Positions 1 through 18,047 of a stretch of DNA of 20,765 bases are shown piece after piece. The translations under genes and the position numbers were made by a program. Origin of the DNA: Bdellovibrionota bacterium (GTDB taxonomy: Bacteria; Bdellovibrionota; UBA1018; UBA923); contig JBFMCE010000070.1 in the NCBI GenBank assembly GCA_040754655.1, positions 1 to 20,765 of the forward strand. The letters are read 5' to 3'. The notes beneath the pieces were generated by a model that did no database searches, had not been told where the DNA came from, and worked only from the letters and a program-made list of their open reading frames with translations. Within the stretch, counting starts at the first letter, position 1, and each line of letters starts with the position of its first letter.

Positions 1-491
1 TTCGTCGCGGCGTATTCTTTGTTCTTGTTCCCCCATACGCCGATCATGAAGTAGATCGGCAATAGGGCAGAGCCCCAGAAAGCAAAGAGCAGAAACAGGT
101 CTTGAGCGGCGAAGGTTCCGAGAACGCTCGTCTCTAACATCAAGAATAAAGCGAAATAACCCCTCACCCCGGTGGTTCGATCCCATGAAGCGATGATGCA
201 CAACAGGAACAAGAGCGAGGTGAGGCAGATCAGGGCAATGCTAAGGCCGTCCACTCCGATTAAATAAGAAATATTCAACGAAGAGACCCACTCATAGTTT
301 TCAACAAACTGCATTCCGCTGGCCTCGGGGCTGAACTTCGCGACCAGCACGCAACTCAAGACAAACGTCATGAGACAGGTGGCCAAGGCTATGTAGCGCT
401 GCATCGTTTTATCGTTAGGGTGGAAGAGCAGGGTGAGAAACGATCCTATTAGAGGAAGAAAAATGATTGTGCTTAAAATGTAATTGATCAA
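1..491 (-). CDS. nuoM: NADH-quinone oxidoreductase subunit M-like (antiporter-like), 5' part only; runs off the window edge
   Basis: Not in the ORF track; translated manually. TTG start at 491, 4 nt after the nuoL stop, with a GGGGGA SD-like run upstream. Reads MINYILSTIIFLPLIG...MQFVENYEWVSSLNISYLIGVDGLS...QDLFLLFAFWGSALLPIYFMIGVWGNKNKEYAAT, matching the NuoM N-terminus (GVDGLS, DLFLF..W...P.YF.I..WG). Open to position 1. Confidence 0.93.
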   Translation of the reverse strand, partial: MINYILSTIIFLPLIGSFLTLLFHPNDKTMQRYIALATCLMTFVLSCVLVAKFSPEASGMQFVENYEWVSSLNISYLIGVDGLSIALICLTSLLFLLCIIASWDRTTGVRGYFALFLMLETSVLGTFAAQDLFLLFAFWGSALLPIYFMIGVWGNKNKEYAAT

Positions 492-495
492 GGCC

Positions 496-2457
496 TTATC
501 CCCCCAAGACAACGAACTTTGCGACGATGGCGCCCATCAAGATAAGCCCCATCGCGAAATAAAATTGAACCTGCCCGTTCTGTACGAGCCTCAACGACTT
601 TCCAATCGTAGCAATGGCTTCGGCCAGGCCATCGACGAGTTTTTGATCGATCAAACGAGTCTCTAAAGCAATGAAAGCATTTTTCAAAAAACGCATGGGC
701 TTCAACCATGCGTCAGAGGTGAGGTAATCCAAACCCCTTGAATCAATGAAGGCCGCAAGCCTTCCAAGGTTCTTGCCCGTCGGGCTGATGAACCAGTTCC
801 AAAGCAACGATTGATTGCCTTGCAGCCTGGCCAAATGATCGGTAAACGCGCTGACTTTGGCCTTGAATCGTTCGGTGGATTCGCGATCCCTAAAGATAAG
901 AAACATCGATAAGAGCCAAGAGAAAAGCAGGATGCTCACCAAAGAAACCCTCGCCAGAATATCGGAATCCGTTCCTACGAGCTCAAGGGCTGTCTGAGAA
1001 GAGCGTGACGATCCGACCGGGATGCTTACAAGTCTTTCAAACCAAGCGAAGTTCGGCAAAAGCTCAACGCCATCGTTTCCAAGAAGCCCGCTAAACAGTC
1101 TTCCACCGGTAAGCACCGCCAAACATGAAAGACAGACCAGAGCCACGGGAATGGCGATTTCAATGCGTAAATTTTCTTTCGTCGTCTTAGCGGCCCATCT
1201 CTCTCGCAGCACTCCCCACAAAGCCACGCTCAAGATGAAATCCGTCACGAACTTGATCCCGACCAGGACCCACTGAAGATGATAACCTTGTTCGCCCACG
1301 TGAAGAAGGCCAAGGTACTCTAGATAGCGCGCACCTGCCCAACCCGTTCCAGGAAAGCCGCTGAACGCCACAACAGCTAGCGCGACGAACCATCGCGATC
1401 CCCGGTCTTCCGCTTGAAATTGGTTCAAGGTCAATGTCACCAAAAAACTCACGATGACGCCGTTGAAAGCCAGCGCTTGCGCCGCCTGGTAATCCGCCGT
1501 AAGCCCGGAAATGAACACAGAGGCCGAAATATAACTGACGAGCCAGCCCGCGATCATGGAAGGTTCGCGCTCGGGAAGCGCCATCACCGCCGAAGTCAAC
1601 GCCGTGATCGCCGAAATGATGCCCAGGTATTCAAGACCATTGATCGATGAGAGGGCGGGATAGAGCTTCGAAAAAATCGTCGCAGACAAAAGCGCATGCC
1701 CGATGAAGAAAATCGGGAGCGCGCTTGATTTTGCCGAAGCGAGATAACGAACGTTCTGCATCAGCGGGAAATGCAAGCTGCGCAGCATGCACGCCAGTCC
1801 TAGGCAAACAATTGGCCAAGCCTCTGGCTGGCCGGCTGAATGTTCATTGATCTCTTTGAAACTCAACGATCCATACAACACGTAACATCCCAATGTGCCC
1901 GCCAGAAAAACGATCTCCGGTATCGCATTGAGAATCGCGTATCGAAACGAAGCTCTGGCTCGTTCATCGCGAGAAGGGCTGCTAAATCCAATGGCGACGA
2001 ATCCGATAAAACCAACCAAAGCCCATCCGAAGTAGAATGAGATGAGGTTGCCAGAACTCAACGTCAACAAGGTGCCGAGAGAGACCAATGGTATCGCTGT
2101 GACCTCGCCGCTAGATTGGCTCTTTGAGCCTTTGAGTTCTTGCATCAAGGCGAAGTATTCAAGAAGGGCGAGGATCACCGAGAACAAGAGCCAAAACAAC
2201 ATGGTCGTCGCGTCGACGTCGAATTTAAGCTCAAAACGAACATTTTCCGCGAGCGCAAACCAAGTCCCGCTCCATTGCACGACCGACGATTCCGCGAAAA
2301 TCCTCACCGCAGCCCAAATCGCGCTTCCGAGCTGCACGCATGCCATCGCCAGGCCCAGCCCTCGAACTCCCAACTTGGATCTGCTCCTGAAAAACACCGA
2401 GATCAGGGCCCAAAGAAGCAATGCTCCGGCGGAAAGGAAAAGCGGTGCTCGTTCCAT
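496..2457 (-). CDS. nuoL: NADH-quinone oxidoreductase subunit L-like, highly divergent (653 aa)
   Basis: Lies between nuoK and nuoM; many TM segments; NL..FY.GW..VG...F..IGF remnant of TM5; C-terminal amphipathic helix plus LRLVQNGQVQFY and a terminal TM typical of NuoL. Confidence 0.85.
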   Translation of the reverse strand: MERAPLFLSAGALLLWALISVFFRSRSKLGVRGLGLAMACVQLGSAIWAAVRIFAESSVVQWSGTWFALAENVRFELKFDVDATTMLFWLLFSVILALLEYFALMQELKGSKSQSSGEVTAIPLVSLGTLLTLSSGNLISFYFGWALVGFIGFVAIGFSSPSRDERARASFRYAILNAIPEIVFLAGTLGCYVLYGSLSFKEINEHSAGQPEAWPIVCLGLACMLRSLHFPLMQNVRYLASAKSSALPIFFIGHALLSATIFSKLYPALSSINGLEYLGIISAITALTSAVMALPEREPSMIAGWLVSYISASVFISGLTADYQAAQALAFNGVIVSFLVTLTLNQFQAEDRGSRWFVALAVVAFSGFPGTGWAGARYLEYLGLLHVGEQGYHLQWVLVGIKFVTDFILSVALWGVLRERWAAKTTKENLRIEIAIPVALVCLSCLAVLTGGRLFSGLLGNDGVELLPNFAWFERLVSIPVGSSRSSQTALELVGTDSDILARVSLVSILLFSWLLSMFLIFRDRESTERFKAKVSAFTDHLARLQGNQSLLWNWFISPTGKNLGRLAAFIDSRGLDYLTSDAWLKPMRFLKNAFIALETRLIDQKLVDGLAEAIATIGKSLRLVQNGQVQFYFAMGLILMGAIVAKFVVLGG

Positions 2458-2461
2458 ATGT

Positions 2462-2764
2462 CTAGTGCCTCAACTCGTTTTTCTCGCCTATGTTTGTCGT
2501 TCCTGAGGCCATGAAGCGGCGGTAGGTGAGGGTGCAGCCCAAGATGATCGTATTCAAAATCATCGTCGCGACGCAGAGGGCGAAGAACATGCCGTCGCTC
2601 GAATTAGGTTCATTTTGATGAAACGCCGCCATCGCCACCAGCGCTCCCATGCCTGCCGTCGTTAATCCCATGATCACGGCAAGGATACTCCCCCGCGAAA
2701 GGGCCGACGCGATCCCAATGCCCACCAAAACCGCGGATAAAACCAAATAGAGTTCAATTTGCAT
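2462..2764 (-). CDS. nuoK: NADH-quinone oxidoreductase subunit K-like, divergent (100 aa)
   Basis: 100 aa, three hydrophobic helices, YLVLSAVLVGIG start, DG before TM3, GTTNI...NELR tail; operon position. Confidence 0.88.
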   Translation of the reverse strand: MQIELYLVLSAVLVGIGIASALSRGSILAVIMGLTTAGMGALVAMAAFHQNEPNSSDGMFFALCVATMILNTIILGCTLTYRRFMASGTTNIGEKNELRH

Positions 2765-3296
2765 CGTCAGGTTTCCTCAATAGCAACCCGGTTCCAACCA
2801 CCGTTAAAAGCACCAGCACCCCGAAAAGCTCGAAAACCGCCAAATGATCCGTGAGCATTTTATCGCCCAACACATGCACATCCGCCTTCAAAGCGGAAGC
2901 GGCGCTTTGAGATGCCCCGACCACTGGTCTGAGCTTGGAGACTGACAAGAACGCCCAGGCGATAGAAACGCCAACGGCTATCCCAAGTACCACTCCAAGC
3001 CCCCTGGTCAGATGCCTGGTTGATGCTTTGGTCGAGGGTTGTCTGAACACTTCCCTGAGATTCGAAGATACGACGCTCGCGAAGTACAGCAGCAATACCG
3101 TGCCCATGAGGGCGACCCCGAAGATCGCTAAGGCCAGGTAATCCGCTTTCAAGCTCAGCAAAACCCCGGAGACGCTGAAAAGCTCGACAAAGAAAGCGAT
3201 ACTTGACCTCAAAAGATCTCGAGCAAAAGCGATATAGGTCGCTGATAAAACACAAAGCACCATGAACAAGAAGGTCATCACCTCGAGTAGAGTCAT
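2754..3296 (-). CDS. nuoJ: NADH-quinone oxidoreductase subunit J-like, divergent (180 aa)
   Basis: Five TM-like segments; L.ADYLA and C-terminal LG..ML.DHL.VFELFGVLVLLTVVG motif; ATGA overlap with the nuoI stop. Confidence 0.88.
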   Translation of the reverse strand: MTLLEVMTFLFMVLCVLSATYIAFARDLLRSSIAFFVELFSVSGVLLSLKADYLALAIFGVALMGTVLLLYFASVVSSNLREVFRQPSTKASTRHLTRGLGVVLGIAVGVSIAWAFLSVSKLRPVVGASQSAASALKADVHVLGDKMLTDHLAVFELFGVLVLLTVVGTGLLLRKPDDAN

Positions 3297-3877
3297 GTTT
3301 CACCTTCGTTCTTTTCCCGGCGCCGCAGCTCGGCCCCGACAGGGCTTTGCTCTAACCACGCTTGCTCTTCGGCCTTCGCTTCTTTAGCCATCTGTTCAGT
3401 AAGCCAATTTTGTTTCATGTCCCGCGTCGCCCAACCGCGACCGAAACTCTTCACAAGGCTACTCAGTTCAAAAACAGATCCTTGATACTCCCGGGTATGT
3501 TGCAAGCTCTTCGTCGGACATACTTCAACGCAAAGCCCGCAAAACATGCAACGCGCATGATCGATGTCGAAAACAGCTACCCAACTCATATTGCGTTCAG
3601 GACCCGGCTCTGTTTCGATGCGAATGCAATCGATCGGGCACACTTCCAAGCAGTACCGGCAGCCCGAGCAGCGCTCGATGTCGTTGTAGAGAAAGCCCCG
3701 ATACCTGGCGGGCAAGTCTTCCGGCATGCGCGCGCTGACCCGGTCGGGGTACTCCTCGGTGACGACCTTGAAACTCTCGGAAGCGCCTATCATATAAGGC
3801 AAGGTGGTGCGCAAAGCCATGATCAAGGTTTCACAACCCTTCCTTATTTTTGTCCAATATCCGTGTAGGCCGCTCAC
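3293..3877 (-). CDS. nuoI: NADH-quinone oxidoreductase subunit I (2x[4Fe-4S] ferredoxin-like, about 194 aa)
   Basis: T.EYP, RYRG, CSGCRYCLEVCP and CMFCGLCVEVCP motifs. Start re-assigned to GTG at 3877 (GTGA overlap with the nuoH stop, AGGAG SD upstream) rather than the ORF-track start at 4159, which lies inside nuoH. Confidence 0.95.
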   Translation of the reverse strand: MSGLHGYWTKIRKGCETLIMALRTTLPYMIGASESFKVVTEEYPDRVSARMPEDLPARYRGFLYNDIERCSGCRYCLEVCPIDCIRIETEPGPERNMSWVAVFDIDHARCMFCGLCVEVCPTKSLQHTREYQGSVFELSSLVKSFGRGWATRDMKQNWLTEQMAKEAKAEEQAWLEQSPVGAELRRREKNEGET

Positions 3878-4968
3878 AAGAAATCTCCTAAACCTCTTCC
3901 ATTGAAAATCACCATCCAAACCGCGACGAAAAATATCGAAAATAGCCCGACCGGAACCAAGCAGCGCCAACTCAGCTTGATCATCTGGTCGATTCGCATC
4001 CGCGGCAAGGACCACCGGATCCAAATTGACAAGAAAACCAGGAAAAAGACCTTTGTGATGAAAAACAACCACTCGACGAGATTGGCCGCGCGACCAAACG
4101 ATTCGAGATTCAGCGGCGTACGCCATCCCCCCAAGTAAGTGGTCACGATCAACGCGCACGACAAAAACATTGAAAGCGTCTTCAATATCGATACGAATCC
4201 ATGCCGAAGCCCGCTGAATTCCGAGGAAACGCCACCCGCCACCTCAACCAAAGAGTCATGATGGTCAAACGGAGTCCGTCCTTGCCATATCGACAATCCA
4301 AAGAACAGGCAGAGAAACGAAAGGAGCGTGCCCGGATTGTGCAAGACGATCCAGTTCCATGGCATTCCTCCTTGGACACGCACGATTTGATCAAAGTTTG
4401 GGCTGCCGGCAACCAAGACCGGCGGGACAAGCGCTACGGCCACCGGAATGATGTACGTCACAAGGGTGCCGATGATCCGAAATGACGAAAGCACAGACCA
4501 CTGGCTTTCTGCCGAATATGCCGCCCAGAAAATGCAGAGGTTGGAGACTCCCAAAGCCGTCAGCACCGCCACCAATCCTGATTCAAGATTCGATATCGCC
4601 CAACTCTGCGACATCGGAATGCTACCGACCGCGGCGAACATCACGACGATAGCGGCCGGGATGCCCCAACGAAAAAGAAAACGTTCCTGCAGCACGGGTT
4701 CGAGGTTTTCTTTGAACAAGAGTTTGATCGCATCGGCGATGACTTGAAAGAATCCGTAAAGCGGAACGCGATTGGGCCCGATGCGCATTTGAATGTCGGC
4801 GCCGAACTTGCGGTCCATGAATCCGATGGCGACGATCGGGGGCAGTGTGAGCAAAAACCCATGAACAAAAACCGCCAGAGAGACCAGCACCCAACCCGGT
4901 ATCGTTGCGCTGAAGAACGAGCCCAAGTAAGCGGCAAGCGGGCTGATCGCGTTCAAATCGGCGTTCAT
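3874..4968 (-). CDS. nuoH: NADH-quinone oxidoreductase subunit H-like (364 aa)
   Basis: DRK..A.IQ.RIGPNRV..YG.FQ.IADAIKLLFKE; R.PFD; EFSG; W.RWSLPRMRIDQ motifs. Confidence 0.95.
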   Translation of the reverse strand: MNADLNAISPLAAYLGSFFSATIPGWVLVSLAVFVHGFLLTLPPIVAIGFMDRKFGADIQMRIGPNRVPLYGFFQVIADAIKLLFKENLEPVLQERFLFRWGIPAAIVVMFAAVGSIPMSQSWAISNLESGLVAVLTALGVSNLCIFWAAYSAESQWSVLSSFRIIGTLVTYIIPVAVALVPPVLVAGSPNFDQIVRVQGGMPWNWIVLHNPGTLLSFLCLFFGLSIWQGRTPFDHHDSLVEVAGGVSSEFSGLRHGFVSILKTLSMFLSCALIVTTYLGGWRTPLNLESFGRAANLVEWLFFITKVFFLVFLSIWIRWSLPRMRIDQMIKLSWRCLVPVGLFSIFFVAVWMVIFNGRGLGDFL

Positions 4969-6077
4969 CGGTCTACCTCCGAAGCCATGATGTCAAATGA
5001 TCCCAGTATCGTCGTGACGTCGCTGATCGGGACATCCTTCAATATCGCCGGAAAGAGATTCAACACCGAAAACGAAGGCGTCCTGAACTTGACTCGGAAC
5101 GGGTGTTTCTCGCCTTGGCTCGAGATGTAGACGCTGAGGGTTCCGCGCGGGCTTTCAACCGAGGCGTACGCTTCCCCTTGGGGCGCTTTGAATATCCTGG
5201 GAAGCGTCGTTTGATAGTCGCCCGCGGGAAGATCATCGAGAGCTTGTTTGATGAGGGAAGCTGATTGCTCGATCTCCCGAATCCTGACCATGTGGCGGTC
5301 GAATGCATCGCCCGTTTTTCCCGCTTCGCCTTTGCCAACCGGGACGTCGAATTCGAGTTTGTGGTAAACGCAGTACGGAAAGACTTTCCTGACATCGTAC
5401 TTCAACCCGCTCCCGCGAACGATGGGACCCGTGACTCCACAGCTCACGGCCTCTGAAGCGGAAACAACGCCAACCTCGGCCAATCTTCCGACGAAGATCT
5501 GGTTATTCGAAAGAAGATCGTTGTACTCTTTAAGCTTGGGAACCAGGTAATCAATGAACTCATACGCCTTCTCGATGAATCCCTCTGTGACATCGGCGAA
5601 TACCCCTCCTATGCGGACATAGTTGTAGGTGAGGCGAGCCCCGCATAAGATCTCAAAGAGGTTGTTTACCTTTTCACGATCGCGAAGCGCATACAATAGA
5701 GCTGACTCAGCGCCCAGGTGATGGGCCAGGGTCCCAATGCTCATCAGATGACTCGCGATTCGATTCAATTCACCCGCGATCACCCTGATGTATTGCGCGC
5801 GCTCAGGGGCCTTTATCTCTGAAAGGCTCTCGACGGCCAATGCATAGACAAGGTTGCAGTGGATTGAAGCGAGGTAATCAATCCGATCGGTATAAGGCAT
5901 GAATCCGGTCCAGGTCATGCGTTCGGCGATCTTTTCAATGCCTCGATGCAAATAACCCACGTCAGGACGAGCCGTCAGCACGACCTCTCCGTCAGTTTCA
6001 ACGCTCACGCGAAACGGCCCAATGGCCGCTGAGTGGTGAGGACCGATATTAAGCCTTAGCGTTCGCGCTTCTGCCAT
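4965..6077 (-). CDS. nuoD: NADH-quinone oxidoreductase subunit D-like (370 aa)
   Basis: LNIGP.H, GYLHRGIEK, DRIDY, ELNRIASHL, GARL.YNY.RIGGV, ESPRG, C-terminal EVDR; no NiFe CxxC motifs; GAGGG SD. Confidence 0.96.
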   Translation of the reverse strand: MAEARTLRLNIGPHHSAAIGPFRVSVETDGEVVLTARPDVGYLHRGIEKIAERMTWTGFMPYTDRIDYLASIHCNLVYALAVESLSEIKAPERAQYIRVIAGELNRIASHLMSIGTLAHHLGAESALLYALRDREKVNNLFEILCGARLTYNYVRIGGVFADVTEGFIEKAYEFIDYLVPKLKEYNDLLSNNQIFVGRLAEVGVVSASEAVSCGVTGPIVRGSGLKYDVRKVFPYCVYHKLEFDVPVGKGEAGKTGDAFDRHMVRIREIEQSASLIKQALDDLPAGDYQTTLPRIFKAPQGEAYASVESPRGTLSVYISSQGEKHPFRVKFRTPSFSVLNLFPAILKDVPISDVTTILGSFDIMASEVDR

Positions 6078-6085
6078 TTAAACCC

Positions 6086-6595
6086 TCATGGTCGCGTATG
6101 CTCCTTACGCAACGGAGCCCGTCGATGTTCGATCGAATGGTATTCTTCGGGGAACGTGTAATCCTTCCGCAATGGGAATCCTTGCCAATCTTCCGGCAAA
6201 AGGAGTTTTCGAGGCTCAGGATGCCCCTGAAACGAGATGCCCAGCATTTCGGCGATCTCAAGTTCATAGTAAATCGCCGCTTTCCATGTCTCATGCGCCG
6301 ACGGCATCTTCGGAGAATGGCGGTCGACCGATACTTTGAGATTCAAGGTATGCACGAGCGACAAGGAGACGAGCCTGTAGATGATCTGAAGCTCTTGCCC
6401 AGCATCGATGCCAATCATGTTCTCAAGAAAATCAAATCTCAAGCTTGAATCAGCAGCGCAAAACTCAAGAACCTTTTTCAAGGAATCACGTTCAACGCCG
6501 ATTGAAATGAATTTTCCGCCATTCTGATCCTCGATAGGATGAATCGCCTTCCCGAAGTTCTTCTCGAGCGCCTCGAAAAATTCACGCGTCTCCAT
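6086..6595 (-). CDS. nuoC: NADH-quinone oxidoreductase subunit C (about 169 aa)
   Basis: E.E..EM.GI.F.GHP..R..LLP.DW.G.PLRKDY signature. Start taken at ATG 6595 (GGGGTG SD); 6613 is an alternative. Confidence 0.93.
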
Positions 6596-7097
6596 CGACA
6601 CCCCTGAGTTCATCGCGCACCAAGACGCGGCTGCCTGCGATTCGACGCTGCAAGGTCAACAAACCATGCAGAAGAGCTTCTGGGCGCGGGGGGCAGCCTG
6701 GCACGAAAACATCAACAGGAATGATTTTATCGACCCCGCTCACGGTCGAGTAGGAATACTCCCAACTGAACAACCCTCCGCAATTCGCGCAGCTTCCCAT
6801 CGAAATCACGTACCTGGGGTGAGGCATCTGCTCATAAAGCTCGCGAATGCGCGAGGCCATCTTATGAGAGACCGTTCCCGCGACGATCATCAAGTCCGCG
6901 TGCCGAGGAGAAACTTGCGACACAGCCCCGAATCTCTCGATATCGAACCGCCCGCCCGCTACTTGCATCATTTCAACGCCACAGCATGCAAGATCGAGAG
7001 TGAGATAGTGGATAGAGTTCTGCCTGGCCCAGTTTATCGCGCGATCGAGCTGGGTGAAAACGACGTACTCGGGAAAAGCATTTTCAAGAATTCCCAT
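6582..7097 (-). CDS. nuoB: NADH-quinone oxidoreductase subunit B (cluster N2)
   Basis: [45 protein letters not shown]; all four N2 ligands present. Confidence 0.97.
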
Positions 7098-7488
7098 GAT
7101 TGTTTCGACTTTCCTTGTCTCGAATCCAGCTCAAATCACCTTTGGTCCAAGCATACGCTAAAGCGACTGAAAGTGACGCTAGAAATAAGCTGACAGCCAC
7201 CAATGCCGCCAGACCGCGACCCTCCTCGAGAGCGTGCCGAAAGGTGCTCACCACCGGATAAAGCATGAACATCGCCCCGAAAAACGCCGCCGCCGCCACC
7301 ACGAGGGACTGATAGCGCGACGCCATTTTGATCCAAGGTTTCGACTCGATCGCTTCTCCTGAGCTGAACGCGGTCTTTCCGCTCTCATCTCGCCGACTGC
7401 GTCGAACCCAAAAGCTAAAGACCAGCAACGAGATGAGAAACCCAAGACCCCAGATGCCCGCTAGAAAATTTGGAAGGTGTTTTTCCAT
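7084..7488 (-). CDS. nuoA: NADH-quinone oxidoreductase subunit A-like, divergent (about 134 aa)
   Basis: Three TMs, K..F.SG loop, LYP, and YAW.KG.L.W C-terminal motif; first gene of the operon. ATG 7488 preferred over the TTG at 7509. Confidence 0.88.
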
Positions 7489-7537
7489 AATATAAATATT
7501 GAAATTCAAATAATAAAACTATATTGCGCCCCTATAA
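7489..7537. promoter_or_regulatory. Compact AT-rich divergent promoter region between nuoA and mfd, with palindrome TTGAA-A-TTCAA (7499-7509)
   Basis: 49-bp spacer, strongly AT-rich against a roughly 50% GC background. Plus strand TTGAAA(7499)-N15-TATATT(7520); several TAnnnT hexamers on the minus strand. Confidence 0.6.
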
Positions 7538-10500
7538 ATGTCTAGCCATCTTGGTCAAGAAATCTTCAATCGTTGGACACGTTCCTTTTCTCAAGTCGAA
7601 TTCGTAGGACTCAATTCAGCCGCGAAAGCGCTCGCACTTGCCGAACTCATCGTGAAATTCAACCAACGCGTCGCGGTAGTTTGCGCGAATGCCGAAGCTG
7701 CCTCGCGAATGCATCAAGACATCAAGGCGTTCGTCGCTCTTCTCGGAGGCGAAGAGCTCACCAATCAAATTGATTACTTTCCTGGTTGGGAACATTCACC
7801 ATACAAGGCATTCAACCCGTCTCTGAAAAATCGCATCCGGCGCCTTCGCACACTTCATCGCGCGCTCAATGCGGCCAATAGGGCGATCGTCACCGATATC
7901 GAGGCTTTCGCGCAGCGGTGCCCTACGATTGAGCAAATTCAAAACCGTGGTTTTACGCTGCGCGTGCAAGACGTTGTTAGCCGAGACGAGTTGGTCGCTA
8001 AACTTGAACAAGCCGGTTACGTTCGAAACGATCCTGTGGAAGACCCCGGCAGTTATACCGTGAGAGGGAGCATCTTTGATATTTTCTCGTCAGCATCGAA
8101 GAGACCTGTGCGAATCGACTTTTTCGATGACATGGTTGAAACTATCAGGAGCTACGATCCCAACTCGCAACGTAGCGACCAGGCGTCGCTGGGTGAAGCA
8201 ACGATCATCCCGACATCAGAACTCGCTCTGACGAACGAAGAGATCGCCGTTGGTAAGACCAATATCAAGAACCTTTGCGATGAATTCGGAATTCCGAAAC
8301 AAGCCCGCGATGAATTGTTTGAAAAACTCGATCTCGGAATTCGTGAGCCCTCTCTTGAGTACTTGCTCCCTCTGTTTAGTGACGCTGAACGCCCCTTCTT
8401 GCTCGAACACTTGCGCGGCGATTGGAAGCTTGCGATTGATGACTCATTCGGCGCTGAAAGCTCTTACGATGAACTCACCACTCGGCTAAAGGCTGACTTC
8501 AAACGAGCCGTCGCAGAGGGCAAGGTCGTCGCGCCCTGGGAAAGACTTTACGTGACGCCCGAGAGTTTCAATCTCGGGGAAAAAGCGTCCTTGCTGCTAG
8601 AAAGCATTTCCGTCGGAGTTCCCGAAGCTACGGTTCCCCAAGAAGATCAAGAATCGACTTCGCTTTCTCGTCGTTTAGAAGTCAAACTCTACTCAAACGC
8701 CGACATCTCGCCTCAAGAAAACCGGAAAGCTTCTTTTGAGCCTTTGGTTGAAAAAGCAAAGCTTTGGCAAGACAAAGGCTTTGCACGTGTGTGCATCGCA
8801 TCAACCAAAAGCCAGGCCGAACGCGTTAGTTTCTTGCTCAACCAAAAAGACATCCCTTGTCGAGTCGTATCGCAGATTGATTGGACAGAGCGTCTTGTCT
8901 TTCAGATTTGCGAAGGCTCGGTAAGTTCGGGATTTCGAATTCCAAGCCAAGAGCTTGTCGTCGTCACCGACGCCGAGATCTTCGGGCCAAAAAAACTCAG
9001 ATCGCATTCCACTCAAGGAGCGACCCAACCTGAAGTCAGCATGGGAAGCTTTGTTTCCTCCCTTGAAGACCTCAATGCAGACGAACTGATCGTACACAGC
9101 AAACACGGGATCGGACGTTATCGGGGTTTGATGAAGCTCGAAATCGACCGAGTTCCCCAAGACTTCTTGCTCATCGAATACGCTGGCGCCGACAAGCTTT
9201 ACCTGCCTGTTTACCGGCTCGATCAAGCCCAGCGCTACGTCGGCGCACAAGAAGGCGTCAGTCTTGATAAGCTTGGCACGAATCAGTTTGAAAAAACAAA
9301 GCAGAAGGTCAAGGCGGCGCTTCAAGATCTTGCCCATCAACTCTTGCAGCTCTACGCCAAAAGAGCGAGCAGAGAAGGTTTTTCGTTTTCCGCTAGAGAC
9401 GAAGACTACAGCGAATTCGAAGCAAGATTCCCGTATGCCGAAACTCCTGACCAACTAAAAGCCATCGAAGATGTCTCACGCGATATGGAGACCGACCGCA
9501 TCATGGATCGCCTCATCTGTGGCGACGTCGGTTACGGAAAGACCGAGGTAGCGATGCGTGCGGCTTTCCGGGCTGTCGTCGATGGGAAACAAGTCGTCGT
9601 TCTCGTTCCCACGACCGTCTTGGCGTTACAACATGAAAGATCATTTCGAGAGCGCTTCAAGACAGCGCCTCTTCCGGTGAACATCGGCGTATTGTCACGC
9701 TTCAAGACTCCCAAAGAAGTGAAAGAAACCCTCACTGGCCTCAAACAAGGAAGCGTGGACATCGTCATCGGCACTCACCGGTTGCTCTCAAAGGACGTGG
9801 CCTTTAAAGACCTTGGTTTGATCGTCATTGACGAGGAACAGCGTTTCGGCGTCGAACACAAAGAGAAACTCAAAGCCCTTCGCGTCAATACCGACGTACT
9901 TACGCTCACCGCGACTCCGATTCCGCGCACCCTTCAGCTCTCGCTCATGGGCATTCGAGACATCAGCGTGATCAATACTCCGCCCGTCGATCGATTGAGC
10001 GTGCGCACTTACATCGCGCGATTCAACGACGACGTGATCCGTTCGGCGATACAACAAGAGATCGCGCGCGGGGGGCAGGTCTTCTTCATCCACAACCGGG
10101 TTCAAAGCATCAATGCGATGGCCGATCGAATTCAGGCGATCGTGCCCGAAGCCAAGATCATCATCGCGCATGGGCAACTTGACGAGAAAACGCTTGAAGA
10201 ACGCATGCTTGAGTTCTACAACAAGAAGGGCAATGTGCTCATCTGCTCTACGATCATCGAATCGGGCTTAGACATCCCATCGGCCAATACGATGATCATC
10301 AATCGCGCCGACATGTTTGGCCTTTCCCAGCTCTACCAGCTTCGAGGTCGGGTAGGGCGCTCTCAGGTGCGAGCCTATTGCTACCTCCTTCTTCCGGAAG
10401 AGGGGGCCATCACCGAGGAGGCCAAGAAGAGGCTTGAAGTGATTCAACGCTTTGTGGATTTGGGGTCTGGCTTCAAGATCGCCTCACATGACCTTGAGCT

Positions 10501-11068
10501 CCGGGGCGGCGGCGATATCCTGGGGAAATCGCAGTCAGGGCACATCGCGGCCGTTGGATTCGAACTCTATGCCGAGCTACTCGATGAAACCATCAGGGAG
10601 CTTCGTGGCCAAGCGATCGAAGACCACTTCGATCCCGAGATTAAGCTGCCGGTGCCTGCGTTGCTGCCTGAGTCGTACGTTCCTGACGTCCACCAACGGC
10701 TTGGTTTTTATAAGAAACTTTCGCAAGCTTCTTCGGCCGAGATTCTGCATGCGCTCGAACTCGAACTCCAAGACCGTTACGGAAGAACTCCGACGGAGGT
10801 GCAAAACCTCATCTGGCTCATCCGAATCAAACAAATCCTGCGATTGCATCACATCAAAGCCCTCATCGCTGGCCCGGAAAGAACCTCGATCGACGCAGGA
10901 CAGGAGGCAAAACTTTCTCCCGTCAAAATGTTGACTCTAACCCAGCGAGAACCTCAGACCTACCTGCTCACGCCGGATTCGAAGGTCATCCTCAAACGCC
11001 CGTTCCAATCTGCCCAGCAGCTCTTTCACGATCTTGAGAAATTATTGACACAGGTTGCAGAGCACTAA
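7538..11068 (+). CDS. mfd: Transcription-repair coupling factor Mfd (1176 aa)
   Basis: UvrB-homology module (GY.R...VE.PG.Y.VRG.I.DIF), RID (VH.KHGIGRY.GL), [42 protein letters not shown] motif DLELRGGG. Confidence 0.99.
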
Positions 11069-11083
11069 TGTGCATGTTAGAAT
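11055..11083 (+). promoter_or_regulatory. Sigma70-type promoter for the PPIase gene, overlapping the mfd stop codon
   Basis: TTGCAG(11055-11060)-N17-TAGAAT(11078-11083) with extended -10 TG at 11075-11076; GAGGG SD before ATG 11125. Confidence 0.65.
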
Positions 11084-11124
11084 TTTTTTGTTGCACTATA
11101 TCTTTAGGATGAAGAGGGTCGCCC

Positions 11125-11958
11125 ATGGGCAAAGCGCTTATATTGACAGGCATGTTGTGTGCAGTGATTACGAGTCCGATGGTTCACGCAGCCACTGAGC
11201 TTGCGCGAGTGAATTCGAAAGTAATCACTCTCGAAGAGTTCAATAACAAATACAAAGAGAACCTAAAGTTCTTTCGTTACAAGACTCCGACGAAAGAAAA
11301 CGTTCTTGATGAGATGATCAAGCGCGATCTGGGCGTTCAAGAGGCTAAGAAGCTTGGTTTGGATAAAGACCCGGAAGTGATCGAGCGCATCAACACCGTC
11401 CTTTACCACTCGCTCCTCGACAAGAAACTTTCCTCGAAGTTTGAAACGATCCAAGTCAGCAACAATGAGATTGAAGACCATTACAAAAAAAATCCCGAGA
11501 TCCGAACCTCACACATCTTTGTTCAAGTCAGGTTCGATGCCAACAAGGCTCAAGACAAGAAAGCCCTTGAGAAGATCAAAAAGGTTCAAGGCATTTTAAA
11601 CGACGCATTGAAATCAGGCAAACAAACCTTCGCGGAAGTCGCTCGTACATACTCTGAGGGTGTCGCCGCACCGGCGGGCGGCGATATCGACTACCAAACC
11701 AAAGACAAACTTGACCCCGCTTATTACCAGACGGCTGTGAATCTTAAGAAGGTCGGAGCGGTGAGCGATATCGTTCGTTCTCAGTTTGGCTATCATATCA
11801 TCAAGCTCACTGGCCTCAAAGAGTTCAAAGACGTCGACCGCGGACACTATAAGCGCATGGTTTTCGATGAAAAACGCGCAAAAATCTTCGACTCTTATAT
11901 GGATGACCTTAAAAAGAAGGCCAGCATCACGGTACGCCGTGAATTGATCAAAGATTAA
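11125..11958 (+). CDS. Exported parvulin (PpiC/PrsA-type) peptidyl-prolyl isomerase / foldase (277 aa)
   Basis: Sec signal ending VHA; LARVN...ITL.EF chaperone N-terminus; rotamase motifs SHIFV, FAEVARTYSE, GGDI, VRSQFGYHIIKL. Confidence 0.92.
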   Translation: MGKALILTGMLCAVITSPMVHAATELARVNSKVITLEEFNNKYKENLKFFRYKTPTKENVLDEMIKRDLGVQEAKKLGLDKDPEVIERINTVLYHSLLDKKLSSKFETIQVSNNEIEDHYKKNPEIRTSHIFVQVRFDANKAQDKKALEKIKKVQGILNDALKSGKQTFAEVARTYSEGVAAPAGGDIDYQTKDKLDPAYYQTAVNLKKVGAVSDIVRSQFGYHIIKLTGLKEFKDVDRGHYKRMVFDEKRAKIFDSYMDDLKKKASITVRRELIKD

Positions 11959-12022
11959 AGGTCAGCCTGTGTTTTAGTCTGCTCTTGCCTTAACCCTGGA
12001 TTCCGCGGTAGTTTGGGCTCGT

Positions 12023-12994
12023 ATGGACCCTAAGAACGCACGCTCGTTTTTCATCTCTCTTCTTGGTTTGTGCGCTATCTCAGCTTTCGCGCTCGAGATG
12101 CCTGCGCACGCCGCATTAATTGATAAAACTGCGGCAATCGTCAACAACGAGGCCATCTTGCTCTCAGATGCAAGACGTTTTGAGCGTACATTGGGCTTGA
12201 GACGAGAGCTTGACCCGCTATTCGGTTTTTCAGAAGAACTTGAGGCTGGCAAACTTTCGAACTCCAAAGTCCTCGATTTCCTCGTGCAAGAACGCCTGAT
12301 TGCCCAAAACTTCAAGGTAACTGATTCAGAGGTCGAGCAAGAAATCCAAACCGTCCAGCGCAACAACAACCTCAATAGGGAGCAGTTGGTCGATTTCTTA
12401 AAGGCCAAGGGCTTTTCTTTCCCAGATTACTACGAGCTTATGAGGGTGGGGCTTTCGAAACGAAACCTCCTCGACAAAGAAATCCGTACTCGAGTCAATA
12501 TCAGCGAAGAAGACAAGCGCAATTATTTTTACAATAATGTGATGAAGAATTCGAAGACCCCGCTCGAATACAATCTTCAACTCATCATGATCAGCAACAA
12601 GAGTTATAAAACTCCCAAAGCCGCTCTAGAGGCCGCTCAAAACGCTTTGCGCTCAATCAAGCAAGGCGAATCTTTCGCGGAAGTGGCTAAAAGCAGCTCA
12701 GATCACCCCTCAGCCCGGCAGGGAGGAACGCTTGACTATATTTCATCTGAGCAATTGGGAGAACCCCTTCGCTCAGAGGCGCGTAAACTTGCCATTGGAG
12801 CCGTCAGTGATGTGATCAAGACGTCAGATGGTCACCTCATTGTGAAGCTTCTCGATGCTCGATCCACCGAATCTCAGAAGTATAAGGAAATGAAAGATCA
12901 AATCGAAGAACGCCTGGCGCGGGTCGAGTACAAGAAACAGCTCTTCATTTGGGCTGAACGGGCCAGAAACGATGCCTACGTTCGCCTCAATTAA
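12023..12994 (+). CDS. surA: SurA-like periplasmic chaperone with one parvulin domain (323 aa)
   Basis: Signal peptide; IDK.AAIVNNE.ILLSD SurA N-domain; FAEVAK..SD....GG.L parvulin remnant; immediately upstream of pdxA as in the common surA-pdxA linkage. Confidence 0.82.
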   Translation: MDPKNARSFFISLLGLCAISAFALEMPAHAALIDKTAAIVNNEAILLSDARRFERTLGLRRELDPLFGFSEELEAGKLSNSKVLDFLVQERLIAQNFKVTDSEVEQEIQTVQRNNNLNREQLVDFLKAKGFSFPDYYELMRVGLSKRNLLDKEIRTRVNISEEDKRNYFYNNVMKNSKTPLEYNLQLIMISNKSYKTPKAALEAAQNALRSIKQGESFAEVAKSSSDHPSARQGGTLDYISSEQLGEPLRSEARKLAIGAVSDVIKTSDGHLIVKLLDARSTESQKYKEMKDQIEERLARVEYKKQLFIWAERARNDAYVRLN

Positions 12995-14015
12995 GCCGGC
13001 AACCAAGCTCATCGGAATCACAACCGGCGATCACCGCGGTATCGGCGCTGAAGTCATCGCCAAAGGCCTGAAGAAGTTTTTTAGCAAAACACTCGAACCC
13101 TCGGATGTGGTCATCTTTGGCAAACCCGAGCTGTACAGGCCATTTCACAAGCTCCTTCCAAAAGAATGGCATAGCTGGACGGAAAAAGAATTCTTGGCCC
13201 CGGATTGGGCGGGCCCAGAGAGGGCCGCCCTGAATTTCGTCGTCCCTGATTCCACCCAAATCCCAAAAAACCTTCGAAGCGCTTATTTCTGCGGCCGATA
13301 TATCGAGCTTGCGACTCTTTCAGCTTTGTCCGGAAGGCTCAGCGCGATCACAACAGGTCCAATTGATAAGAGTGAACTCAAACGCGGCGGGTATCCTTTT
13401 GACGGGCATACCGAAATGCTGAGAAATCTTTGCAAGGCCCCCTCTGTGACTATGATGATGGCGGGTCCGCAAATGAAAGCCTCTCTCGCGACCGTGCATG
13501 TCGCATTGAAAGATGTCGCTCAAACCCTCACCATTGAAAACATCGCCACTTGCATTGAAAACACGGCCCTGGGTTTGGTGCGCGACTTTGGGATCAAGCG
13601 ACCTAAGATCGCGGTTCTCGGGCTCAATCCCCACGCTAGCGACCAAGGTCTCTTCGGGAATGAAGAGCGTGATAAAATCAAACCCGCGATCAAACGCGCT
13701 CGTTCACGTTTTCCTCGCATTGAAATCGACGGCCCTTTCCCGCCAGATGGCTTTTTTGCGCAGTGGCGGTCGAGGCACGCCTTGAATTTTGATGCAATTG
13801 TTTGCATGTATCACGACCAGGGCCTTATTCCGGCCAAATTACTCGACTTTGAAAATACGGTAAACGTAAGCTTAGGTTTACCTATCGTGAGAACTTCGGT
13901 AGATCACGGCGTAGGATATGACATTGCCGGCAAGAACAAGGCCGATCCTTCTAGCTTTTGTGCTGCGTTAGCACTTGCTGTAGAGATCACGCGGCGGCGC
14001 TGGTCACGCAAATAG
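12972..14015 (+). CDS. pdxA: 4-hydroxythreonine-4-phosphate dehydrogenase PdxA
   Basis: IT.GD..GIG.E, GPI.K, GHTE, T.H, GLNPHA, MYHDQGL, N...GLP.VRTSVDHG; the three metal-binding His are present. Confidence 0.96.
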   Translation: MPTFASIKPATKLIGITTGDHRGIGAEVIAKGLKKFFSKTLEPSDVVIFGKPELYRPFHKLLPKEWHSWTEKEFLAPDWAGPERAALNFVVPDSTQIPKNLRSAYFCGRYIELATLSALSGRLSAITTGPIDKSELKRGGYPFDGHTEMLRNLCKAPSVTMMMAGPQMKASLATVHVALKDVAQTLTIENIATCIENTALGLVRDFGIKRPKIAVLGLNPHASDQGLFGNEERDKIKPAIKRARSRFPRIEIDGPFPPDGFFAQWRSRHALNFDAIVCMYHDQGLIPAKLLDFENTVNVSLGLPIVRTSVDHGVGYDIAGKNKADPSSFCAALALAVEITRRRWSRK

Positions 14016-14023
14016 GAGCAAAA

Positions 14024-15445
14024 ATGAGTTACGCAGAAAAAATCTTCCGTGAATACGACATCCGCGGCGTTTATGGCAAAGATTACGACGCGGAGTTTGC
14101 GAGTCTCTTGGGCCATGGGCTGACCACTTATTTTCGCAAGCACTCAAGACCGGGCAAAGGACGCGATGTCTTTCGAATCGCCATAGGGCGCGACGCTAGG
14201 CCCTCGGGCGATGAGATCACGCCAAAGTTCATCGATGCGCTTGTCCGCGAAGGATTTGACGTTTATGACCTGGGCATTGTTCCCACCCCGCTCGTGTATT
14301 TCTCGACATTCAATCTTGACGTCGATGGCGCTGTTTCGATCACGGGCAGTCACAATCCATCTGAGTACAATGGCTTTAAGATTTGCCTTGGCACCTCGAC
14401 TCTTCATGGGGAGAACATCCAAGAATTGCGCGAGATTTGCTCAAAGATCGTCAAACACATCCCAACCACGAACACCAGCATGCCAGGCAAACCGGCAATG
14501 GGCAGGATCTCGAAACAAGACATCATTACTCCCTATATTGCCGACGTGAAGGGACGCATCAAGATCGCAAGACCCATCACGGTAGTCATAGACTCAGGAA
14601 ATGGAACCGCCTGCACGGTAGCTCCAAAGCTGCTTTCAGAGCTTGGTTGCAAGGTCATTCCTCTTTTCTGCGATCTTGATGGAACTTTTCCAAACCACCA
14701 TCCAGATCCGACGGTGGTCGAAAACTTAAGAGACCTTCAAAAGGAAGTTCTCGCGCATAAAGCCGATCTGGGGATCGCCTATGACGGAGACTCTGATCGC
14801 ATCGGCGCGGTCGATGAAAAAGGGACACCCATCTTTGGCGATGAGTTGATGGTGCTTTACTCGAGAGAGATTCTTTCACGCAAACCGGGCGCGACGATCA
14901 TCTCTGAGGTCAAGAGCAGCAATAGGCTTTACAACGACATCGCTAAACACGGGGGTAAGCCATTGATGTGGAAGACGGGCCATTCTCTCATCAAAGCAAA
15001 GATGAAAGAAGAACATGCGGAACTTGCCGGGGAAATGAGCGGCCATATCTTCTTTGCCGACCGCTATTATGGCTATGACGACGCAATCTACGCCTCAGCG
15101 CGTCTGCTAGAACTTTTGAGCAAGCAAAAGGGAACTTTATCTTCATTGCTCTCTGACCTTCCTCCTTCCGTCAGCACTCCTGAGATCCGCGTGGACTGCG
15201 AGGATGAGATCAAGTTTGAAGTCGTCAGTCGAGTTCGCAAAAACCTGGCGAGCCGTTTTAAAACCATTGATATTGACGGAGTGCGCATCGAAACTCCCCA
15301 AGGGTGGGGACTTTTGCGTGCGTCCAACACCCAGCCTGTGGTAGTAATGCGCTTTGAAGCGACCTCAAACTCTGATTTAGAGTCACTTAGAAAGACGATA
15401 GAAGATGCTTTCGAAGCAGCACGACGGGAAGTCAAATCGGCCTAA
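14024..15445 (+). CDS. Phosphomannomutase/phosphoglucomutase (AlgC-like, about 473 aa)
   Basis: [15 protein letters not shown] catalytic Ser, DGDSDR metal loop, GEMSGH, RASNTQP. Start re-assigned to ATG 14024 (AGGAG SD at 14014-14018). Confidence 0.96.
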
Positions 15446-18047
15446 CAAGAAGATCAAGGAAATCGCGACCTCAAATGATGAATTCATCGTCATCAAGGGT
15501 GCGAAAGAACACAATCTCAAGAATCTGAATATTTCGATTCCGCGGGAAACCCTCACGGTGATCACCGGGCTTAGCGGTTCGGGCAAATCTTCGCTAGCCT
15601 TTGATACTATCTTCGCTGAAGGCCAACGCCGTTACGTCGAATCGCTCTCAACTTATGCTCGTCAGTTTTTAGAAACTCTTGATAAACCTGATGTGGAAAG
15701 TGTTGACGGGCTGTCTCCAACGATCTCAATTCAACAAAAAACGACTTCTCACAACCCACGTTCGACCGTCGGCACAGTGACCGAAGTTTACGATTATCTA
15801 AGGCTGCTTTACGCAAGGCTTGCAAAGCCGTTTTGCCACCAGTGCGGAAAACCCATTTCAAGCCAAACGGCGCAACAAATCGTAGACCGGGTGCTGGAGC
15901 TGCCAGACAACTCTAAGATCTGCATCCTGGCTCCGATCGTTCGAGGGCGAAAAGGCGAGTACCAAAAAGAACTGATCGCCATGCGGCAAAAAGGGTTCTC
16001 CCGTGTGCGCATTGACGGAGAGGTCTTGGATTTGAGCCAAGACATCGCGCTCGACAAGCAGAAAAAACACAACATCGACGTGTACGTAGACCGACTCATT
16101 TTGAGGCGATCGACACCGGCGGCCAAGGGATTTGATCCCATCCGAGGCAGGCTTCAAGAGTCGATTGAGACCGCCCTCAAACTCGCTGAAGGCTTGGTCA
16201 AGGTTGAGCTACCTGATGAAAACACTGAAACCCTTTATTCCGAGAAATTCGCCTGCATCGATTGCGGCATCTCGTATCCCGCACCCGAGCCACGTACTTT
16301 CTCATTCAACTCGCCTATGGGAGCCTGCCCTGAGTGCAACGGGTTGGGTTATTTCGTGGAAGAACCGTCGAATGAGGACGAAGACGAAGAAGATCTTAAC
16401 GCATCAACCACGGCCGCCATAGATGTGTGGACGAAATGCGAGAAATGCAAGGGGACAAGGCTCAAGCAGGAATCTTTGTATTTCAAGATTCATGATCGAA
16501 ACATCGCCGATCTAAGCTCGATGTCGATCGAAAGGCTTGCTGAATTTTTTGGCAAGGCCAAGTTTGCCGAACGAGACCTGATGGTGGCTGACCGGATCTT
16601 AAAGGAAATCAAAGACAGGTTGGGATTTTTGTTGCATGTCGGGGTAGGGTACATTTCGCTCGACAGAGCGGCTCAAACCCTTTCAGGAGGCGAGAGTCAA
16701 CGTATTCGGTTGGCTACGCAAATCGGGTCGTCTTTGGTGGGTGTCATTTATGTCCTTGATGAACCCAGCATCGGACTCCATCAGCGCGACAACAACAGGT
16801 TGCTTGAAACCCTCGAGAGATTGCGCGATATGGGAAACACCGTCTTGGTCGTAGAACACGATGAAGACACGATTCGAAAGGCCAATCACGTGATTGACCT
16901 TGGTCCCAGGGCAGGCACTCAAGGAGGGGAATTGGTTGCGCAAGGCACCCTTGAAGAGGTGTGCGCGAATCCCAAATCGCTCACGGGCCAATACCTCACG
17001 TCGAAACTAAAGATCGAAGTGCCTAAAACGAGAAGGCCTTACAACGATCAACATGCAATCAAACTCAAAGATGTGGCCCAGAACAACCTAAAGTCAGTAG
17101 ATGCCACGTTCCCTCTAGGGGTTTTCACGTGCGTAACAGGGGTTTCAGGTTCAGGAAAATCGACCCTTGTGATCGACACGCTCTATGCGCTTCTAATGAA
17201 AGAGCTCCACAACACGAAAATTTCTGAGCTAAACTTCAAATCCATCGAAGGCCAAGAGCTCATCGACAAAGTCATCGATATCGATCAATCTCCGATCGGT
17301 CGCACGCCTCGCAGTAACCCAGCCACTTATACGGGCACATTCAGCATGATTCGTGATCTTTTCGCGATGCTGCCCGAGGCTCGAATGAGGGGGTTTAAGC
17401 CTGGCAGGTTTTCGTTCAACGTAAAGGGGGGAAGATGCGAGCGTTGTAAAGGCGACGGACTCGTACGCGTTGAGATGCATTTTTTATCCGACATTTACGT
17501 CACTTGTGATGAGTGTTCGGGCCGCAGGTACAATGAAGAGACCCTTTCGATTCACTACAAAGGAAAATCCATCTCTGACGTCCTTGCGATGACGATCGAT
17601 GACGCCACTCAGTTCTTTGAGAATGTTCCCAACCTTTCGCAAAAACTTCGGACCTTAAGCGAAGTAGGGCTTGGGTATATTACGCTTGGCCAAAGCGCCA
17701 CCACGCTTTCCGGAGGGGAAGCGCAGCGAATGAAGCTTGCGCGTGAGCTTTCGAGGCGTGCAACCGGGCGTACGCTCTACATCCTGGACGAACCCTCAAC
17801 AGGTTTGCATTTTGACGATGTCCGAAAGCTCATTCAGGTCTTGCACCGGCTGGTTGATCAAGGAAACTCTGTGATTGTGATCGAACACAACCTTGAGATC
17901 ATCAAAACCGCCGATTACATCATCGACTTAGGCCCGGAAGGCGGCGAGGGCGGGGGAGAAGTCCTGATTCAGGGCACTCCGGAACAAGTCGCAAAGCTTC
18001 CGCGATCGTATACCGGTCACTATCTAAAACCTTATCTTAGGAACTGA
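15405..18047 (+). CDS. uvrA: Excinuclease ABC subunit A, lacking the insertion domain (880 aa)
   Basis: GA.EHNLKN, two Walker A motifs ([18 protein letters not shown]), two LSGGE.QR signatures, LDEPS, Zn-finger CxxC pairs. Start uncertain: it overlaps the PMM gene by 41 nt. Confidence 0.98.

Follow-up and report, generated by a model that had tools for sequence, protein, structure and literature searches.

A complex I (nuo) operon that is very probably no longer a working, canonical proton pump is conserved and under selection across UBA1018, a class of Bdellovibrionota. We focus on the copy in the genome of a Bdellovibrionota bacterium (assembly GCA_040754655.1, here G000), where a window of 20,765 nt, the entire contig JBFMCE010000070.1 (C70), carries on its minus strand, from position 7488 to position 1, ten nuo-like open reading frames (ORFs) without frameshifts: nuoA'B'C'D'H'I'J'K'L' and the first 163 codons of nuoM' (primes mark the degenerate copy). 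Judged by its homologues of NuoA, B, C, D, H, I, J, K, L, M and N in operon order, it is by descent an 11-subunit complex I. Because most of its pumping residues and a pair of quinone-site residues are lost, its iron-sulfur (Fe-S) sites are kept and relatives preserve the operon under selection, the complex probably has a job other than pumping protons.

Operon structure and the second nuo set

The genes are tightly coupled, as a first-pass annotation made from the letters alone had noted. nuoA'/nuoB' and nuoB'/nuoC' overlap by 14 nt, nuoC' and nuoD' are separated by 8 nt, nuoD'/nuoH' and nuoI'/nuoJ' meet at ATGA and nuoH'/nuoI' at GTGA, nuoJ'/nuoK' overlap by 11 nt, and 4-nt gaps lie at nuoK'/nuoL' and nuoL'/nuoM'. 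The nuoEFG genes are missing from the cluster, nuoH' standing directly after nuoD', and one nuoEFG set lies in the neighbouring operon. That annotation had proposed looking for a second, canonical operon, and one is indeed present: a tblastn search of the genome found on contig C36, in this order, the second half of the divergent nuoM (G000:C36:2-973), the divergent nuoN (nuoN', G000:C36:970-2457), 56 bp and, downstream, a complete canonical nuoA-N (C36:2514-15812). C70 and C36 share no sequence overlap; we infer that they join at nuoM' because in six relatives the two halves occupy a single contig, and a seventh relative has the downstream portion. Horizontal import is unlikely given this synteny and the equal G+C content at third codon positions (GC3) of the degenerate (0.62) and working (0.63) operons.

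Loss of coupling residues and retention of Fe-S ligands

Residues were called in MAFFT L-INS-i alignments of the E. coli K-12 Nuo proteins, 21-44 canonical copies and the degenerate copies of relatives, at positions that we take to be the key ones of the complex I literature and that were checked against the E. coli letters; NuoD His228 and Asp329 follow literature numbering (224 and 325 in NP_416789.2). Every substitution named in the first-pass annotation was confirmed. NuoA' (7084-7488, 134 aa, ATG at 7488, PF00507 at 1.5e-11) shows D79F and E81A and has also lost E102 and E51; NuoH' (3874-4968, 364 aa) shows E157I, E218L and E241K; NuoJ' (2754-3296, 180 aa) shows Y59A and has lost G61; NuoK' (2462-2764, 100 aa) shows E36T and E72T; and the part of NuoM' encoded at 1-491 shows E144G. 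In NuoL' (496-2457, 653 aa), which retains the full NuoL fold with its long lateral helix, E144A, H334A, H338N and K342V occur together with the loss of K399, K229R and D178E are seen, and H254 is kept; NuoL' is about 15% identical to NuoL, and its single-position calls are correspondingly less certain. The identity of the subunit itself is firm, with a profile match to NuoL of 99.9% in hhalign and an AlphaFold model (predicted local distance difference test, pLDDT, 83) whose top Foldseek matches are NuoL/ND5 at a template modelling (TM) score of about 0.65 and 15% identity. These substitutions are not due to chance, because the canonical copies retain the sites in all rows or all but one.

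The earlier claim that the charged axis is lost in every membrane subunit holds for the named sites, but the loss is not total, since 8 of 27 key sites persist here, including parts of NuoM' and NuoN'. In its second half, NuoM' keeps K265, H322, H348 and E407, with K234R, and NuoN' keeps E133, K217 and H305, with K395R and K247T. This score is the joint highest among degenerate copies, which range from 0 to 8 and lie mostly at 0-3 in families other than that of G000; intact copies miss at most two key sites each. Among the degenerate copies, D79 and E81 of NuoA are found in 0/38, Y59 of NuoJ in 0/43, E36 and E72 of NuoK in 0/43 and 1/43, E157 and E216 of NuoH in 0/42, and E144, K229 and K342 of NuoL in 0/43. 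NuoM retains E144 in two of 43, K265 in eight and E407 in five, its K234 being Arg in 37 (37 of the 38 copies outside family f10, whose membrane genes are much shortened), and NuoN retains E133 in seven of 43 and K247 in one, with a basic residue still at K395 in 35/38. The possibility that compensating charges had arisen, which the first-pass annotation had itself raised, found no support: a scan for buried charges detected no conserved compensating acidic or basic residue in NuoA', NuoJ', NuoK' or NuoL', and the membrane residues that are retained are mostly Gly, Pro and helix-end charges. In E. coli NuoN, K247A and K395A each reduce oxidase activity and pumping to 6-35%, and K247A alone lowers both to about 10-35% (PMC13073174), and the three antiporter-like subunits and the E-channel have been described as essential (PMC10212512). 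Canonical pumping is thus very unlikely, because most such sites have been lost together.

The quinone site is affected as well, a loss beyond those listed in the first-pass annotation. In NuoD' (4965-6077, 370 aa, of the short type), His228 is replaced by Ile and Asp329 by His, a pair regarded as the proton donors for quinone reduction (PMC10212512), whereas His224 and Tyr277 are kept; NuoB' carries R87Q. Both members of the pair are absent from all 44 degenerate NuoD' and Tyr277 is present in 10/44, while NuoB R87 is lost in 41/41 NuoB'. The Fe-S ligands, reported as intact in the first reading, are indeed complete: NuoB' (6582-7097, 171 aa) has all four Cys of cluster N2 and NuoI' (3293-3877, 194 aa, GTG start) all eight Cys of N6a and N6b, and the same Cys are complete in 41/41 NuoB' and in 44/45 NuoI', the single miss being a split ORF. 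NuoB E67, D77 and D94 and NuoH R46, D63 and K70 are also kept, and NuoC' (6086-6595, 169 aa) is recognized by PF00329 at 2e-33.

Distribution and selection among relatives

UBA1018 comprises two orders and is sister to Bacteriovoracia (PMC13200544). Sixty relatives were searched and regions were fetched for 49. A NuoI' profile matched 36 of the 38 genomes of the order at E <1e-52 (most of them having helped to build the profile) and 5/5 genomes of the other order of the class, and in 44/44 fetched loci canonical nuoA follows the block directly, with a gap of -6 to 208 nt. The ratio of nonsynonymous to synonymous substitution rates (dN/dS), estimated by the NG86 method for 13 genome pairs, of which 6-7 had saturated dS (including G018/G027, three genes) and in which one nuoJ' frame of G045 was mis-called, was 0.10 for G004/G009 (2730 codons) and 0.030 for G018/G033 (2188 codons; canonical operon, 0.025), with values of 0.046, 0.064, 0.13 and 0.20 in pairs near saturation. 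Random decay, which the first-pass annotation had already argued against, is largely ruled out by these ratios (0.03-0.20), by the tandem layout in the 44 fetched relatives and by the absence of any frame break in the window.

Degenerate copies also persist in G012, G061 and G070, in whose assemblies (90-93% complete) no intact complex I was found. Both copies of G012 (L168 and L169) are eroded with their frames open, its type 2 copy (types are defined below) being without E, F, G, L and M and having Arg at His228 and Cys at Asp329. In G061 and G070 (1.5 Mb; COX1 was not found), a string of B-D-H-I-J-L-M-N is present in eroded form. Further variation in antiporter-like subunits was noted in the class. 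All five genomes of the other order have, between nuoL' and nuoM', an additional ORF of some 450-490 aa that would be the fourth antiporter-like one and whose Atlas features point to PF00361 (L088:5536-6984, L089:12732-14069, L090:5491-6966, L091:5752-7167 and L092:5652-7118). In G003 (L066:6154-16036) and G042 (L067:5963-16330), there is a third, 11-subunit nuo operon, otherwise intact, in which NuoM K234 is replaced by Ile/Leu and NuoN H305 by Gln.

Origin and the reciprocal case in family f22

In other classes of the phylum, the corresponding site has the ancestral arrangement of mfd, a type 1 membrane-arm cluster, a type 2 cluster and a TPR gene, the B-C-D-I genes of type 1 being located elsewhere and its NuoD being short. 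Both types occur at the site in G064, G072, G071, G062, G065 and G073, and only type 2 in G074 and G081. In type 1, no more than one key site is missing from any of the 19/19 membrane arms, and the five NuoD sites are all kept in 6/6. In quick maximum-likelihood trees from which the longest-branch rows were left out, the degenerate NuoH and NuoM fall on the type 1 side (support by the Shimodaira-Hasegawa-like approximate likelihood ratio test, SH-aLRT, 99 and 92); NuoD trees do not resolve the sister of the degenerate copy, which is 15-41% identical to the canonical copy of its own genome. A single clade with the canonical NuoH of the class is rejected by the approximately unbiased test (p-AU 1e-15, 26 rows), which rules out a recent tandem duplication of the neighbouring operon. 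Taken from the intact type 1 copies elsewhere and from the NuoH and NuoM trees, the phylogenetic picture is that the degenerate operon is an old working enzyme that lost coupling and not a fresh duplicate. A separate observation concerns an intact type 1 set: in G073, a 665-aa Fe-S protein with CCG domains (L098:8019-10013) directly follows B-C-D-I and is a candidate electron input module for type 1.

The reverse situation is found in family f22, where type 1 is intact and type 2 is decaying, its B, CD and I remnants nesting inside type 2 (SH 100). In the five remnants examined first, the Cys are kept while His228 is lost in 5/5 and Asp329 in 4/5; three further remnants have also lost their N2 ligands and keep all eight NuoI Cys. 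The family forms a series from intact (G102, G213) through degenerate (G068, G114, G146, G170, G224, G135, G233) to absent at the locus (G164, G226, G230, G236). Seven hydrophobic ORFs fill the type 2 position in seven or eight f22 genomes and are absent in four. Profiles did not assign the membrane ORFs of f22 or f10 to Nuo subunits (best probability 32%; Pfam blank), and their candidate identity rests on order, size and hydrophobicity; the protein at the L position in G068 has an antiporter-like best structure match, to a PF00361 cluster of the Atlas (TM 0.47/0.62). By features, the nearest Atlas clusters of that protein (L100:11242-12756) are Pfam-less proteins of 510-590 aa that occur most often in Chloroflexota and might represent degenerate NuoL-like proteins from a different phylum. 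Other f22 genomes appear to capture intermediate stages: G146 (L172:6051-11531) retains every gene of a B-CD-E-F-G-I set in eroded form, apparently midway through losing the NADH module, and the type 2 arms of G102 (L127) and G213 (L133) seem intact in all but NuoN, which scores low and has another residue at K247, perhaps where decay begins.

Newly conserved features and structure models

Columns that are conserved in the degenerate copies and different in the intact ones cluster in NuoI' (Y28, E41, D45, an inserted S48, D54, R58, W99 and G146), and other lineage-specific conserved sites are R50 of NuoB' and R234 of NuoM'. The N-terminal segment of NuoI' that includes the insertion is common to both orders of the class. 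The modelled fold of NuoI' is that of NuoI. Confidence in the monomer model is lowest at the insertion (pLDDT 60-72 vs 88-98), which is what a segment folding upon contact with a partner would be expected to show. NuoK' modelled on NuoN' and NuoJ' scored 0.68 against 0.30 for the best control, passing a mark reached by 116/157 solved pairs and 2/215 mismatched pairs, with at least 86% contact agreement between runs and a partner pLDDT of at least 71. This pass may stem from likeness to solved complex I and not from binding of this particular copy.

Proposed function and alternative explanations

The reading that we favour, tentatively and with a likelihood somewhat short of even, is that of an assembled, proton-sealed scaffold presenting its Fe-S wire and the new NuoI' surface to a partner, with the docking or redox role as the uncertain step. 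The sequences show that the operon descends from the first of two tandem complex I operons beside mfd in ancestral Bdellovibrionota, that the NADH module, the quinone-protonating His/Asp pair and the charged relay of NuoH/A/J/K and NuoL are gone and that the three [4Fe-4S] sites and the membrane folds are kept. According to this proposal, its product would be a pseudo-complex I. The subunits would still assemble, and the membrane arm, with Glu replaced by Gln or hydrophobic residues and Lys by Gln or Arg, would form a sealed scaffold that neither pumps nor leaks. Selection would act on the NuoI'/NuoB' Fe-S head at the membrane, whose new conserved surface may dock a soluble partner that exchanges single electrons with it or reads out its redox state, canonical quinone chemistry playing no part. 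Several observations weigh against this proposal. The block has been cleanly deleted in G035, G039 and G059, where mfd adjoins canonical nuoA on one contig, and at least five of 44 loci have one broken gene (nuoI' in G003, nuoL' in G009, G015 and G034, nuoD' in G020), which may reflect assembly error, as canonical nuoL is split in G004 too. N2 Cys are lost in one of five NuoB' of the sister order and in the three f22 remnants mentioned above, Fe-S ligands could be kept only for folding, and the family of G000 retains much of the NuoM'/NuoN' axis. In addition, the genomes without an intact complex I are only 90-93% complete, and the lineage placement of G061 and G070 rests on long branches.

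Selection for a new role, as put forward in the first-pass annotation, remains likely, although the clean deletions in three relatives, the variable replacements at most lost sites and the prospect of entrenchment without benefit speak against it. In a purely structural or entrenched role, which we consider rather unlikely but the strongest of the competing explanations, the dead complex would stabilize, assemble with or space a respiratory complex, be it the working complex I or a different one; the conserved clusters would serve only as folding cores, and the dependence might bring no benefit and be escapable. The invariable position of the block upstream of the working operon, the progressive shrinkage in f10 and the f22 series, which resembles a slow ratchet to loss, all agree with such a role, and a non-functional bc1 has been proposed to be kept for stabilizing complex I in Acetobacteraceae (PMC10715153). 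It fits poorly, however, with the new NuoI' insertion motif conserved across both orders, with G012, whose two copies are both degenerate yet open, with G061 and G070, where only the degenerate copy was found, and with the most shrunken version, whose dN/dS equals that of the working copy (0.030 vs 0.025). Far less probable, and in our view very improbable, is that the genes are at an early stage of pseudogenization or that their frames stay open just to spare the working operon downstream from polar effects: the clean deletions do indicate that loss is tolerated in some lineages, and no sigma-70-like promoter was seen at the single junction that was scanned ahead of the working operon, but dN/dS is far under 1 in every measurable pair, the Cys are invariant, a new motif is present, GC3 equals that of the working operon, and the degenerate f22 copy lies downstream or elsewhere, where polarity is no explanation.

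Two catalytic alternatives were also suggested at the outset. A non-pumping electron sink to quinone would take the form of an uncoupled quinone reductase, passing electrons from ferredoxin, flavodoxin or a borrowed NuoEFG through N6a, N6b and N2 to a quinone protonated from water. The complete Fe-S wire, the retained NuoB and NuoH residues, the His224 and Tyr277 kept in this genome and the 5-25% activity left in the single mutants H38A and D139N (PMC5938582) would allow it. The idea is weakened because the His/Asp pair is lost, in 44/44, as is Tyr277 in 34/44 and NuoB R87 in 41/41. The operon also has no nuoEFG, nuoC', whose canonical product is a main NuoG contact, is deleted in 13/41 relatives, and an NDH-2-like gene (27% identical to E. 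coli Ndh, E 1e-32) is already in the genome; overall, we consider such a reductase improbable. Transport of another solute has little support and is marginally less probable still. Here NuoM' and NuoN' would conduct protons or another ion through a residual or re-tuned axis around Arg234, as might be suggested by the residues kept in this genome, by the near-invariant K234R and the basic NuoN residue 395, and by NdhF3, a re-used antiporter-like subunit with non-polar in place of charged channel residues (PMC6981117). Yet those residues are lost in most other families (0-3/27 sites), the link from the Fe-S arm (NuoH E157, NuoA D79, NuoJ Y59, NuoK E36/E72) is cut in nearly all copies, and NuoL', whose counterpart has been proposed as the proton exit (PMC10212512), is eroded more than any other subunit. 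The operon also has no MrpE/F/G-, Cup- or DabA-like gene, the best families of its ORFs being Nuo, and DabA (PF10070), the partner protein of DAB/MpsAB carbon pumps, was not found in the 90%-complete genome (CupA, that of NDH-1MS, was not searched for genome-wide).

Beyond this class, it is possible, though we would rate it below the scaffold proposal itself, that complex I has a second, separable and non-respiratory job, for which one ancestral copy (type 1 in this class, type 2 in f22) repeatedly shed NADH input, quinone chemistry and pumping, kept the Fe-S head on an intact arm and could outlive complex I respiration. If so, such copies would form a class of membrane-anchored Fe-S sensors or docking platforms, pseudo-enzymes of respiratory-complex size. 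Across a class, strong purifying selection has maintained about 3,300 codons of membrane machinery after both coupling halves were lost, which points to a scaffold role of complex I for which the open-access texts searched gave no description. Annotation pipelines label these genes NADH dehydrogenase or hypothetical and so attribute to genomes a pump that is probably absent from them. Natural variation within the phylum, where genomes have two intact copies, a degenerate first or second copy, two degenerate copies or a deletion of one, separates coupling residues from those for fold and assembly, and cultured members of the phylum make the question testable.

Neighbouring genes and excluded identities

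Upstream of nuoA', an AT-rich gap of 49 bp (7489-7537), a putative divergent promoter site, precedes mfd (7538-11068, plus strand, TIGR00580), which anchors the nuo locus in conserved synteny throughout the phylum and lies outside the complex. It opens a housekeeping run on the plus strand (7538-18047) of mfd, two peptidyl-prolyl isomerases (PPIases; one SurA-like), pdxA, pmm/pgm and uvrA, the order mfd-PPIase-surA being kept in relatives. On the minus strand, two ORFs of 393 aa (19547-20728) and 474 aa (18083-19507) have signal-peptide-like starts and no family match above the cut-off; the former has one CxxCH motif near its end. Canonical NuoG has 466 aa here (L001:6976-8376) and ranges from 455 to 502 aa in the class, roughly half as long as in E. 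coli. A Group 4 NiFe hydrogenase (Hyc/Hyf/Mbh/Ech) was considered and rejected, since NuoD' scores 441 bits as NuoD vs 13-25 bits, below the cut-off, with NiFe families, and its translation has no NiFe-binding CxxC pair. An Mrp Na+/H+ antiporter was likewise rejected, there being no MrpE/F/G ORFs, Nuo families as best matches and an eroded charged axis.

Comparison with known systems

No published description of such an operon was found in open-access full texts, subscription journals lying outside the search; supplementary figure S2 of PMC4758237, which lists deltaproteobacterial nuo clusters, could bear on prior notice. The closest relative is the intact type 1 operon (NUO11), which shares the gene set, the position beside mfd, the short NuoD and the side of the tree, whereas the degenerate copy keeps 8/27 sites and has a NuoI' insertion that is absent from type 1. 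Subunits, order and folds are homologous to those of the canonical 14-subunit NDH-1 (E. coli NuoA-N and the neighbouring operon); in contrast to it, NuoEFG, the E-channel, the NuoL axis and the quinone-site His/Asp pair are missing. Genomes with two distinct nuo sets are known from Rhodobacter and Geobacter, which have two isozymes (PMC4453560), and from Peredibacter, which has two nuo clusters and for which a nuoAHJKLMN cluster at a fixed site across Bdellovibrionota has been noted (PMC13147790), but in the available text of these papers both sets are treated as working enzymes, with no residue analysis or degenerate copy. The cyanobacterial NDH-1MS (NdhF3/NdhD3/CupA) similarly lacks an N-module and has an antiporter-like subunit in which charged residues have become non-polar (PMC6981117); there, one subunit is re-used and the rest pumps, whereas in the present operon the losses extend to every membrane subunit and to the quinone site, and no accessory catalytic gene is included. 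Finally, the 'deranged' cytochrome bc1 of Acetobacteraceae is likewise a complex kept after its functional residues were lost and proposed to have a structural role (PMC10715153), but its metal ligands are among the losses, whereas in the operon described here the metal ligands are the best-kept feature.

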